A stretch of 7,677 nucleotides of DNA from the IMG/VR virus record IMGVR_UViG_2681813234_000009, positions 1 to 7,677 of that record. One strand, 5' to 3'. Under the pieces are notes generated by a model that did not search any database, was not told the DNA's origin, and saw only the letters and a list, made by a program, of their open reading frames with translations. How positions within the stretch are numbered: the stretch's first letter is position 1; every line of letters starts with the position of its first letter. The DNA is from a virus. Taxonomy: Duplodnaviria; Heunggongvirae; Uroviricota; Caudoviricetes. The translations under genes and the position numbers were made by a program. This document shows, piece by piece, positions 1 to 3,613 of the stretch.

Positions 1-426
1 TCAATGTACTGCCACAGCATTTCCTGCCGGGCCACCACGGTTCATCTGATTGAAACCGGCGATTGCCACTGCGACAAAATCATCAGCGTCTCTCACCAGT
101 CGTTCCCGCGTCTCCACCAACTCCCGAAAATAGACTGAACTGTGGCTGCGCATCCGGGCCACCAGCAGAGGTGGCATTGCTTTTTCGATCGCTGGTAACA
201 ACGCCTGAATTTTTTCAACCGCATCAGTGGTGTCTTTCTCCACCCAGCGGAAAATTTTCTGGGTATTACGAGCCAGGGCTTCTGGATGGCTGTCGTCGTA
301 CAGTTCCGGGGACGTCATTCCCAGTTCGAAATAAGCCCTGGTTATCTTGGCCGCCGGAACTTTTTCACCATCCGGACGCGCCCAGGCATTCATAGCCATG
401 CGGATGTGTTCATGCTTGATTTTCAT
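1..426 (-). CDS. CII-like phage regulatory protein (YdaT / CP76-type), 141 aa
   Basis: Complete ORF on the minus strand; stop codon is revcomp of nt 1-3 (tca). Lies directly downstream of the Cro-like gene with an ATGA start/stop overlap, the classic cro-cII arrangement. The N-terminus MKIKHEHI matches my recollection of YdaT-type proteins; family assignment is from memory, not a search. Confidence 0.55.
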   Translation of the reverse strand: MKIKHEHIRMAMNAWARPDGEKVPAAKITRAYFELGMTSPELYDDSHPEALARNTQKIFRWVEKDTTDAVEKIQALLPAIEKAMPPLLVARMRSHSSVYFRELVETRERLVRDADDFVAVAIAGFNQMNRGGPAGNAVAVH

Positions 427-650
427 GAATCATTCTTTCCTTCGTTCAAGGTGTTATCCTTCTTTTTGTAAAGTTCTGGGTTCAAAGATAATTTTCCCTT
501 GGAGTATGCGGCAGCTTCCGCGGCCCTCCCCTTGGGAACTATTTCACCAGGACGTTTGCGCCACATGTATATAGCTTCACGGGTTATCCCATAAAAATCG
601 GCAACTCTCTGAACAGAGCCAAAAAACTGGACAAGTTCATCAACTCGCAT
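423..650 (-). CDS. Cro-like HTH transcriptional regulator (YdaS/DicC-type), 75 aa
   Basis: Small basic protein with an HTH-like segment (VADFYGITREAIYMWRK). Strong SD AGGAGG 5 nt upstream of the ATG on the minus strand (plus-strand 651-660 ttcaccctcc). Divergent from the CI-like repressor across an operator-rich intergenic region. Confidence 0.7.
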   Translation of the reverse strand: MRVDELVQFFGSVQRVADFYGITREAIYMWRKRPGEIVPKGRAAEAAAYSKGKLSLNPELYKKKDNTLNEGKNDS

Positions 651-742
651 TTCACCCTCCTAAAACTAAGTATTTTTAGATTAAAGGATAATTTTTTTTA
701 GGTCAATGCAATCTAAAATAATTTATATTCAATTCACGGGAG
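651..742. promoter_or_regulatory. Divergent promoter/operator region between cro-like and cI-like genes (OR analog)
   Basis: 92 bp AT-rich intergenic region between divergent regulators. Contains a 20 bp imperfect palindrome CTAAAACTAAGTATTTTTAG (660-679, 16/20 symmetric) and a second inverted pair TTTTAG(695-700)...CTAAAA(713-718). Individual -10/-35 elements were not confidently resolved. Confidence 0.55.
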
Positions 743-1393
743 ATGATGATGGAAAGCCTTGGCATTAGGCTTAAGAGACTCAGAAAAGACAAGGGACTGA
801 CCCAAGTCGAACTGGGCAAGCTTTCTGGCGTAACAGGGGTAACTATAGGGTACTGGGAGAAAGACCTAAACGAACCCGGTAGCAAAGCTCTTAGTAAATT
901 AGCCCAAGCACTAGGAACTACTGAGTCCTATCTCCTATATGGAGTATCGTCTACTGAACCTACCCTTGTGCAGAACAATTCAGGCACCCAAATCCCCTAT
1001 CTTTCATGGGGGGAAGCAATTTCTTTCCTAATTTTAGAAGGAGAGAAAACTATGGGAAATGCCGACAGAATCACCACATTCTTTGACGTCAAGGAGGGGG
1101 ATTTTGCCGTTTCAATGCCTGATGACACTATGCACAACCCATCAGGGTCGCCAAGCATTCCGGTTGGTGCCACAGTGATCATGAGGCCTAGAGAAAAATA
1201 TAAAAATGGTAGTATCGTCGCTGTAATAGTCCCAGATCCGCTTACAAACGAACCATCTATGACTATAAAAAAATTAGTCATCGACGGAAAACTCGTGTAT
1301 TTAAGCCCCCTCAATCCTCGCTATCAATCGTCCTTACTGACACCTGAATGTAAAATTGTTGCTGTAGCAAAAGGTGTGCAGTTCAGCCTATAG
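743..1393 (+). CDS. CI-like prophage repressor, N-terminal HTH (XRE-type) plus C-terminal S24 (LexA/CI-like) peptidase domain, 216 aa
   Basis: N-terminus LKRLRKDKGLTQVELGKLSGVTGVTIGYWE is a typical HTH. C-terminal region aligns by eye to the lambda CI/LexA C-terminal domain (AVSMPDD Ser motif, NGSIVAV, TIKKL Lys motif, LSPLNP). Three consecutive ATGs at 743/746/749; GGGAG at 738-742 gives best spacing for the third ATG (749). Confidence 0.85.
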   Translation: MMMESLGIRLKRLRKDKGLTQVELGKLSGVTGVTIGYWEKDLNEPGSKALSKLAQALGTTESYLLYGVSSTEPTLVQNNSGTQIPYLSWGEAISFLILEGEKTMGNADRITTFFDVKEGDFAVSMPDDTMHNPSGSPSIPVGATVIMRPREKYKNGSIVAVIVPDPLTNEPSMTIKKLVIDGKLVYLSPLNPRYQSSLLTPECKIVAVAKGVQFSL

Positions 1394-1416
1394 CTTCCAC
1401 TTTGTTTTTCAATCAG

Positions 1417-1441
1417 AGGTCGGCTTTGTCGACCTTTTTTA
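1417..1441 (+). terminator. Rho-independent terminator after the cI-like gene
   Basis: Stem AGGTCG(1417-1422) / CGACCT(1430-1435) with a 7-nt loop, followed by TTTTTT (1436-1441), 24 nt after the cI-like stop. Confidence 0.6.
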
Positions 1442-1463
1442 AATATATCTAGATCACACTTGA

Positions 1464-1493
1464 CTATAAAACTAAATAGATTTAGTTTTATAG
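1464..1493. promoter_or_regulatory. 30 bp palindromic operator-like site (possible OL analog) downstream of cI-like gene
   Basis: ctataaaactaaat-ag-atttagttttatag: two perfect 14 bp inverted arms around a 2 bp centre. Shares the 9-mer TAAAACTAA with the OR region (661-669). Preceded by TTGACT (1460-1465). Confidence 0.4.
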
Positions 1494-1669
1494 TATACCA
1501 CCCCACCCCGCCCCACAGAACGCAGGGCAATACTTCGAGTTACCAGGCAGTGGTCAGGGGTTAAGTAGCCAGCCCGAGGCGTAAGAACATGACGGCAGGG
1601 TTCAACTTTAATAACTATGCAGCAGGTTTTTGTTCCGCTACCCCGGCGTTAAGGGGACATGAGGTCAAC

Positions 1670-2733: not shown

Positions 2734-3194
2734 ACATCATCACCTGCTTGTTTGGTTGTTGCTGTTCCCCCTCTCCTCCGAAGGAGCTGGAGATGGTTTT
2801 GGTCGAATGTTTTTCTCTGGTATGTGATCCCAGACTGTTTTATGTGTCGAATTGCCACCACCTGCTTGTGCTCTTTGCTCTGTCATATGATTTCCTTGGA
2901 TCGTTGGGGATATCCAGATTATACAGATTTCTTGTCGTTGGGGAATGACAGGAACCACCTCGCCTGACGTGGTTAAAAGCAGGCACACAACACGAAAGCG
3001 CACGGCGAAGTCATTTCTCCCTCTGTTGCGTGTCGCCGGTATCTTCGACCGTGCGCTTCCGGTTGTGGCACTCCGCGAAATGGCGCGGCGGTAAGTATGG
3101 CGGGGTTATCCTTACCCCCACTGGTAGCACCGGGTTGTCAGGTTGACCATACGCCTGAGTGACAACCCCGCCACAACATCTCCATGTTGAGGCT

Positions 3195-3249
3195 TGTGTG
3201 AGACCTTTGGCGGCATCAGTTTAATTGCTGGCTGATGTCCGCCCTTTTT
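3195..3249 (+). ncRNA. dicF: DicF-like small RNA (3' end defined by intrinsic terminator); 5' end approximate
   Basis: Terminator stem GGCGGCATCAG(3209-3219) / CTGATG(T)CCGCC(3232-3243), 11 bp with one bulge, then CTTTTT (3244-3249). Positioned immediately upstream of dicB as in Qin. Sequence and architecture resemble my recollection of E. coli DicF, but the 5' part differs. Confidence 0.5.
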
Positions 3250-3253
3250 AAAG

Positions 3254-3413
3254 TGAATTTTGTGATGCGGTGAATGCGGCTAAGCGCACGCGGAACAGTT
3301 AAAAAGCGATTAGTTCCCCCGTATCGGGGGTTTATGGGTTTCCCTGTATCCGGCGTTAATTGTTAACTGGTTAACGTCACCTGGAGGCACCAGGCACCGC
3401 ATCACAAAATTCA
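3254..3413. repeat. 19 bp perfect inverted repeat pair flanking about 120 nt of the dicB leader
   Basis: tgaattttgtgatgcggtg (3254-3272) is the exact reverse complement of caccgcatcacaaaattca (3395-3413). Enclosed region holds the hairpin CCCCCgtatcGGGGG and GTTAAC-tg-GTTAAC. The right arm ends 17 nt before the dicB ATG. Confidence 0.7.
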
Positions 3414-3430
3414 TTGTTGAGGATGCGATA

Positions 3431-3613
3431 ATGGAAACGTTATTACCAAACGTCAATACGTCTGAAGGTTGTTTTGAAATTGGTGTCAGAATCAGTAACC
3501 CTGTATTTACTGAAGATGCCATTAACAAGAGAAAACACGAACGGGAGCTATTAAATCAAATATGCATTGTTTCAATGCTGGCCCGTTTACGCCTGATGCA
3601 AAAAGGACGCTGA
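3431..3613 (+). CDS. dicB: Cell division inhibitor DicB, 60 aa
   Basis: METLLPNVNTSEGCFEIGVRISNPVFTEDAINKRKHERELLNQICIVSMLARLRLMQKGR closely matches my recollection of E. coli Qin DicB. GAGGA RBS upstream. Preceded by the DicF-like element, the same order as in Qin. Confidence 0.9.
   Translation: METLLPNVNTSEGCFEIGVRISNPVFTEDAINKRKHERELLNQICIVSMLARLRLMQKGR

Follow-up and report, generated by a model that had tools for sequence, protein, structure and literature searches.

Between the small RNA DicF and the cell-division inhibitor gene dicB, the prophage DNA analysed here (the window, 7,677 nucleotides in all) carries a perfect inverted repeat with arms of 19 nt. The best explanation, and one we hold to be quite likely, is that the repeat encodes P1, a 21 bp RNA stem that is cleaved by RNase III and closes a module of about 165 nt lying between the DicF terminator and the ribosome-binding site of dicB. 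RNase III processing at this place is already known, having been published in 1990 for the K-12 copy according to the accounts of that work cited below. The reported cut falls in the P1 stem, which explains the inverted repeat without anything new. What seems to go beyond the earlier description is that the stem is P1 of a widespread pseudoknotted phage fold of the STnc100/PasD type. The presence of a long-stemmed, gene-proximal form of this domain before unrelated kil-type genes in several enterobacterial genera also seems to be new, and an inferred cut that leaves a stem of canonical length appears not to have been described before. The result ties RNase III and prophage toxin control to the STnc100/PasD RNA family in a way that can be tested.

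Setting of the element

The window comes from a Rac/Qin-like lambdoid prophage of Escherichia coli, of which it represents the early-left region. Several complete genomes match about 86% of the window with an identity of 99.5%, and the immunity region differs. On the + strand the gene order is a repressor, a ydfA-like gene, a 690-nt untranslated stretch containing DicF, dicB, a ydfD-like gene, an exonuclease, xis and int. The stretch from 3190 to 3450 is matched in 4642 of 5426 complete E. coli genomes and also in 39 phage records. Its parts, all on the + strand, are as follows.

3195-3244, + strand: DicF small RNA, 53-nt form (full-length match to Rfam RF00039, 45.4 bits, below the gathering score of 48, E 1.3e-7)
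3209-3243, + strand: terminator hairpin of DicF, with its U-tract at 3245-3249 (detected as a terminator-like site)
3252-3272, + strand: 5' strand of P1, made up of the left arm 3254-3272 and two further pairs; inferred RNase III cut after U3263
3273-3275, + strand: linker J1/2, AAU, nearly invariant across the family in two alignments
3276-3291, + strand: hairpin P2, GCGGC / GC.CGC with a bulged A3288 and the loop UAAGC (minimum-free-energy fold)
3296-3302, + strand: 5' strand of the pseudoknot, CAGUUAA, in J2/3; pairs with 3363-3369
3306-3350, + strand: variable region P3, including a predicted hairpin CCCCCG-UAU-CGGGGG at 3316-3330
3352-3378, + strand: hairpin P4, stem 3352-3359 / 3371-3378, loop UUGUUAACUGG at 3360-3370
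3363-3369, + strand: 3' strand of the pseudoknot, UUAACUG, in the P4 loop
3380-3394, + strand: hairpin P5, CCUGG-AGGCA-CCAGG, directly abutting the 3' strand of P1
3395-3415, + strand: 3' strand of P1, made up of the right arm 3395-3413 and two further pairs; inferred partner cut between 3405 and 3406
3419-3423, + strand: dicB Shine-Dalgarno sequence GAGGA, outside the conserved helix (read from the sequence)
3431-3613, + strand: dicB, a 60-aa cell-division inhibitor (open reading frame; Pfam PF05358 DicB, E 1.5e-37; RefSeq annotation of an identical stretch)

The DicF of the window could be aligned to K-12 dicF, and this alignment, together with synteny, supports its being the ortholog of the K-12 gene. 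The two differ in the 5' single-stranded part and in the hairpin loop. Because these are the target-pairing regions, the target range of the window DicF may differ from that of K-12 DicF. Upstream of DicF lies an irregular hairpin of about 25 bp at 2983-3069 (CACAACACGAAAGCGCACGGCGAAG...CUUCGACCGUGCGCUUCCGGUUGUGG), whose 3' strand holds position ~3060, about 190 nt before the end of the DicF terminator.

The first part of the window (1-1500) is an immunity region that is not common to the 99.5% identical prophages of strains TK3896, UTAK-5 and 0-4, which have racR/ydaS in its place. It contains a 75-aa Cro-like gene and a 216-aa open reading frame that reads like a putative helix-turn-helix repressor with a LexA-type peptidase domain. 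The immunity module of the window is best read as a mosaic exchange. Between the repressor gene and the ydfA-like gene, at 1463-1494, there is a perfect 15-nt palindrome with a 2-nt spacer (ACTATAAAACTAAAT..ATTTAGTTTTATAGT). Copies related to it are present in the divergent cro/repressor spacer, and the palindrome and these copies look like the left and right operators of the immunity region; the further sites noted are 661-682, 710-725 and 1469-1490.

The inverted repeat as an RNA stem

An earlier sequence-only reading had described the arms at 3254-3272 and 3395-3413 as exact reverse complements, far beyond chance expectation. A repeat search bears this out. The arms form a perfect inverted repeat of 19 nt, 100% complementary and 122 nt apart, and this is the longest inverted repeat of the whole window. 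When the window was shuffled along its full length with dinucleotides preserved (n = 200), the longest perfect inverted repeats had 10-15 nt if the distance of the arms was left free and 9-14 nt if it was limited to 300 nt. For inverted repeats of 19-mers, the numbers expected under these two conditions are 1e-4 and 8e-6.

In RNA two further pairs, G3253-U3414 and A3252-U3415, are added, so that P1 consists of 21 contiguous pairs (3252-3272 / 3395-3415). The same reading had predicted a 19 bp duplex closing a domain of roughly 120 nt and ending 17 nt before the dicB start; the enclosed length is indeed 122 nt, the spacing from the end of the right arm (3413) to the dicB ATG (3431) is 17 nt, and with the helix at 21 bp the distance from its end to the AUG becomes 15 nt. 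At the other side, P1 starts 3 nt past the U-tract of the DicF terminator. The energy of the two-arm duplex is about -33 to -40 kcal/mol, with 24-35 nt taken per side, and the 261-nt region has a folding z of -6.7 (minimum-free-energy fold). The inverted repeat is a real, non-random RNA closing stem of a folded module between DicF and dicB.

Conservation and covariation of P1

Is the pairing of the two arms conserved in other copies of the element, as the sequence-only reading suggested should be checked? We aligned 28 distinct long-stem elements from E. coli, Shigella, E. albertii, Citrobacter, Klebsiella, Raoultella and viral contigs with MAFFT, which is blind to structure. In these 28 leaders P1 is 97.6% paired and compensatory changes are seen in 13 of its 21 pairs; since the long-stem class was chosen by duplex energy the percentage paired is partly circular, an objection that does not touch the compensatory changes seen between unrelated arm sequences. 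The observed values were not attained in any of 500 shuffles, and only 31-40% is paired when the register is shifted by 1-3 columns. Quite unrelated outer sequences build the same helix (AGUGAAUUUUGU... versus AACAGACCUUGC... versus AGCAGGCUUUAA...), and the mean duplex energy is -31.5 kcal/mol for an element's own arms versus -16.9 kcal/mol for arms taken from unlike variants.

The length of the helix is conserved as well. Among 23 variants, 21 have a pair at position 21 from the junction, 11 still have one at position 22, and only two at position 23. The length of P1 is held at 21-22 bp.

The counts of G·U and A·C cells bear on the strand. There are 29 of the former versus 6 of the latter, so that the folded species is the + strand RNA. 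In K-12 both of the substitutions in P1 give G·U, and pairing is kept. From these comparisons, P1 is an RNA structure on the + strand that is under selection, and not a DNA site.

The enclosed domain

Positions 3256-3408 match the Rfam family STnc100 (RF02076) at 35.8 bits (E 4.6e-5, model positions 21-154 of 206), which is below the gathering threshold of 47 bits. The closing helix of the STnc100 model corresponds to the inner 8 bp of the inverted repeat. Relatives were collected by a P5-motif scan of viral contigs and a P2-motif scan of one genome per species, which gave more than 110 distinct elements, and the architecture was drawn from alignments, from RNAalifold on a 70-sequence alignment and from pair counts. 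The window element aligns continuously with canonical STnc100 members scoring 52-132 bits, and RNAalifold recovers P1, P2 and P5 with covariation; the core architecture of STnc100 is thus present in the window element. No terminator was found after the domain in the window, where the Shine-Dalgarno sequence and dicB come next after the stem, and the STnc100 terminator (model positions ~169-206) is missing.

Across the family P1 ends in GGUG...CACC, followed by the linker AAU. P2 has 5 bp with one bulge and a loop UNNGC, and compensatory GCGGC<->CCCCC changes are seen in 27-30 of the 70 sequences by RNAalifold, the window having GCGGC and canonical STnc100 CCCCC. P3 varies among homologues in both length and sequence. 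Among the 28 leader-type sequences P4 is 92.9% paired, with compensatory changes in 5 of 8 pairs, and the alignments show its loop to be conserved in this type. The consensus of P5 is CCNGG-AGGCA-CCNGG, its middle pair being G-C in 55 and U-A in 15 of the 70 sequences.

The J2/3 strand CAGUUAA (3296-3302) is complementary to UUAACUG in the P4 loop (3363-3369), and these positions are 99.5% paired in the 28 leader-type sequences. Other subfamilies have different, mutually complementary pairs of J2/3 and P4 loop, such as AUCAGCA/UGCUGAU, AAGGUUG/CAACCUU, AGACUGACA/UGUCAGUCU and GUGAUACCA/UGGUAUCAC. When each J2/3 was compared with its own folded P4 loop the mean was 6.04, versus 4.38 with the loops of other classes, and none of 500 permutations was as high; with wide search windows the same comparison separated poorly (7.6 versus 6.3). 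Testing the pseudoknot column by column over the whole 70-sequence MAFFT alignment did not succeed and gave at most 64% paired, because the subfamilies are out of register in J2/3 and in the P4 loop. That J2/3 and the P4 loop co-vary in complementarity suggests that the enclosed RNA adopts a compact, five-helix pseudoknotted fold.

The sequence-only reading had also drawn attention to GTTAAC-tg-GTTAAC within the domain as a possible protein-binding site. The motif is present (3362-3375), but its first copy belongs to the conserved P4 loop, and the 3' side of the P4 stem is made by the second copy, which is not conserved and shows compensated changes in relatives (CTGGTATC, TTGCAGTC, TTATCG). 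The motif is accounted for by the fold of P4, and the protein site is not upheld. The P4 loop carries the palindrome GUUAAC, and loop-loop dimers are possible in principle.

Long-stem and short-stem forms of the family

The arm duplex energies of the family are bimodal. Among distinct elements with a long P1, a Shine-Dalgarno sequence and open reading frame follow within 75 nt in 48 of 50 and a terminator in none of the 50. Behind a short P1 of 6-10 bp there is a terminator in 53 of 89 elements, and a Shine-Dalgarno sequence with an open reading frame in three of the 89. The genes behind long stems include dicB, kilR of the Rac prophage (PHROG 'Kil protein for bacterial septation inhibition', E 1.4e-36), genes for hydrophobic peptides of 36-38 aa and one for a Rha/Ash-type regulator. 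Several of the small proteins encoded behind long stems have no informative family match. The kilR leader is found in MG1655 at the following position.

1418248-1418502 of MG1655, - strand: copy of the kilR leader (L164)

Short-stem copies are often in tandem arrays near tRNA genes. In one contig (L013, 2265-3380), four canonical STnc100 units, each a domain with a terminator, lie in tandem within 1.1 kb close to tRNA genes. Another (L101, 4349-5513 and 8357-8555) has at least five canonical units, close to tRNA genes and adjoining an IsrI match. In the P1-like phages P7 and D6 the ban operon contains a copy of the domain with a short stem. The P7 copy (L123, 2501-2616, corresponding to P7 72453-72568) lies between tRNA-Thr and terB, 38 nt before the start of terB, and is unannotated in the record.

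The P2 motif is also carried by five contigs (L149, L155, L156, L150 and L129) binned into Veillonella, Nanosynbacter, Collinsella, Mycobacteriales and Chthonomonas MAGs. The first of these encodes an E. coli-type DicB behind the same leader. Most likely, all five are enterobacterial contigs that have been mis-binned into those MAGs.

Probable processing by RNase III

The passages on DicF in two secondary accounts (PMC5069750 and PMC9438474, citing Faubladier 1990) give this RNA two 3' ends: a 53-nt form is generated by termination, and a 72-nt form by the action of RNase III on the full-length dicBF mRNA. The RNase III dependence of the +19 end is, in this literature, reported for the K-12 copy only. 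In MG1655, dicF is at 1649382-1649434 and the left arm at 1649442-1649462. The 72-nt end, 19 nt past that of the 53-nt form, would accordingly be K-12 position 1649453, which is arm position 12 and position 3263 of the window; this mapping assumes that the 53-nt and 72-nt forms share their 5' end, takes its lengths from those two secondary accounts, and belongs to the Qin copy of K-12, which is ~85% identical to the window in this region and whose stem contains two G·U pairs.

RNase III is a dimer with a cleft that accommodates about 22 bp, and it makes a staggered double cut that follows a 2-nt 3'-overhang rule. In vivo, pairing is the rule at both positions that lie between the staggered cuts, and a G-C pair is usually among them. 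With 21 contiguous pairs in the window and 21-22 bp in the 23 variants, P1 has the duplex length of an RNase III site (~20-22 bp or more). The pairs between the inferred cuts are U3263-A3404 and G3262-C3405, and the latter is G-C in 20 of 22 variants. Provided that the cut position is correctly placed, P1 therefore agrees with the in vivo rule in having both positions paired and in including a G-C.

Table S1 of Gordon 2017 lists position 1649470, labelled 'dicF-dicB' and marked as known, with 26 reads in the rnc mutant versus 0/0 in the wild type, and position 1418510, labelled 'kilR-sieB', with 41 reads in the rnc mutant versus none in the wild type; the counts are low, the list is long and noisy, and each position is a ratio maximum within 400 bp and not a mapped end. 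The former position is 8 nt inside the domain and the latter ~105 nt upstream of the kilR stem. These entries weakly support RNase III action at the spacer.

Another paper citing Faubladier 1990 mentions RNase III, in its passage on DicF, only as the enzyme that generates the 5' terminus of a DicF precursor of 190 nt. We considered whether the site of that cut could be the same feature and rejected this. The precursor site corresponds to the separate hairpin at 2983-3069, ~190 nt upstream, with the cut near 3060.

How would the element then work? Transcripts that read through the DicF terminator would fold the two-turn duplex P1, and this would be cleaved by host RNase III. The cut of the 5' strand, after ~U3263, would create the 3' end of the 72-nt DicF, and from the staggered geometry the partner cut of the 3' strand would fall between ~3405 and 3406. 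The dicB-ydfD message would thereby be detached, probably with a 5'-monophosphate and a leader of ~25 nt. An STnc100-like RNA of ~142 nt (3264-3405) would be released with a stem of 9 bp, a leftover that would match the 6-10 bp stem of the free-standing family members. DicF, the remaining product, would carry a tail of 19 nt. What we infer are the second cut, what becomes of the dicB mRNA, and any function of the excised RNA.

A wider reading is possible, although we hold it only tentatively and would not expect it to be correct in full. It says that lambdoid phages deploy the domain in two ways, either with a 6-10 bp stem and an end formed by a terminator, or with a 21-22 bp stem through which RNase III cuts it out of early-left transcripts, directly before host-killing genes (dicB, kilR, small hydrophobic peptides), and that the fold is an uncharacterised class of RNA that binds a protein, a ligand or polymerase. 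If this is true, a functional phage RNA would be set free by the RNase III cut, which would at the same time determine how much toxin mRNA there is. The cut would leave the same ~9-bp stem as in the free-standing RNA, and the domain would be more than the scaffold of an Hfq-dependent sRNA.

Alternative explanations

The stem might serve only as a folding insulator or a barrier to nucleases, such as 3' exonucleases or the scanning of RNase E, and RNase III would have no part in it. The helix has a high stability of about -33 to -40 kcal/mol, the domain lies within a 690-nt untranslated stretch, and long stems are found exactly where translation starts nearby, all of which would suit such a function. 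A barrier might be expected to be as long as possible, whereas the length of this stem is conserved at the size of the RNase III cleft. With an RNase III-dependent DicF end reported 19 nt past the terminator in the DicF passages of PMC5069750 and PMC9438474, and the dicF-dicB spacer flagged, at low counts, in the rnc mutant (Gordon 2017 Table S1), we judge a purely protective stem very unlikely. The sequence-only reading had left the choice between an RNase III processing site and a structure that gates dicB translation. The RNase III part is supported by the covariation and, on those same accounts, by the position of the 72-nt DicF end of K-12 within the left arm; direct gating is not. In gating, the stem would act without cleavage as an on/off structure that occludes or positions the ribosome-binding site. 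The end of the stem is only 15 nt from the dicB AUG, and in the dicB type there are, past a one-nucleotide bulge, five weak pairs (U3247-A3251 with U3417-G3421) that touch the GAG of the Shine-Dalgarno sequence. However, these five pairs are A-U and G·U only and are not kept in the leaders of kilR and of L036, L095, L082, L124, L135 and L141, in which the Shine-Dalgarno sequence is found 15-50 nt past the stem and does not pair with it. Conservation of the helix ends at 21-22 bp, the dicB Shine-Dalgarno sequence at 3419-3423 falls outside the conserved helix, and the distance from stem to start codon ranges over ~15-50 nt among the leaders. Gating is very unlikely to be the general mechanism.

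A perfect 19-bp inverted repeat in the window could also be a palindrome that works at the level of DNA, as a protein-binding site, a cruciform or a recombination site. Against this, K-12 and many other copies lack a perfect DNA repeat, and the pairing is kept there as G·U, which is workable only in + strand RNA. Relatives keep the pairing with quite different sequences, whereas a protein site would conserve sequence and not complementarity, and the arms are 122 nt apart. A DNA-level function has next to no probability in our view. Two further candidates were rejected, and a third was considered. A coding explanation would rely on a 30-aa open reading frame at 3274-3366 with its ATG inside GGUGAAUGCGG, and this ATG is missing in the CCCCC subfamily. 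For an antisense RNA from the - strand, the sole promoter-like match is weak, and the G·U versus A·C counts favour the + strand. As for a riboswitch-like cis-regulator in the enclosed domain, the 21-bp P1, at about -33 to -40 kcal/mol, is too stable to be a switch helix. Cleavage of P1 by RNase III is the reading that we prefer over all of these.

Comparison with known systems

The closest system is dicBF of the K-12 Qin prophage (Faubladier, Cam and Bouché 1990, as described in the DicF passages of PMC5069750 and PMC9438474), which has the same element in the same place. There too the DicF terminator is followed by AAAGUGAAUUUUGUGAUG(C/U)GGUG, the same domain, and the same right arm before dicB. 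The two copies differ in that the K-12 stem has two G·U pairs whereas the repeat of the window is perfect over 19 nt, in the P3 insert, which is 12 nt longer in the window, and in the immunity region of the prophage.

The STnc100 (RF02076) and PasD sRNAs of lambdoid and Stx prophages share with the window element the GGUG...CACC helix, the AAU linker, the bulged 5-bp P2 with its loop UNNGC, P4, the P5 hairpin CCNGG-AGGCA-CCNGG and the pairing of J2/3 with the P4 loop. In contrast, P1 is 21 bp in the window and 6-10 bp in STnc100/PasD, P2 has GCGGC in place of CCCCC, and the window element is without the 3' terminator. It is also placed differently, before a gene in the early-left operon, whereas STnc100/PasD are terminator-ended units near tRNAs, stx or lysis genes.

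The kilR leader of the K-12 Rac prophage is built in the same way. The annotated, DicF-like sRNA KilS has the same kind of terminator at its end, directly next to the same left arm, as DicF does here, and this is followed by the same domain, a 22-bp stem with one bulged A, and the division inhibitor gene kilR. It differs from the window element in its downstream gene, in the one-nucleotide bulge of the stem and, in the K-12 Rac copy, in a G-to-A change at the last base of P5. We found no published RNase III mapping for the kilR leader.

Stems cut by RNase III that enclose structured RNA are well known from pre-16S and pre-23S rRNA, and sites in phage mRNA are known from the lambda N leader, lambda sib and the intercistronic regions of T7. 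The likeness to the window element is that of a long duplex which flanks a folded domain or lies between cistrons and which, when cut by RNase III, separates functional RNAs. In the window, unlike in these systems, the enclosed RNA is a phage module of ~120 nt, and there is no sequence relationship between them.
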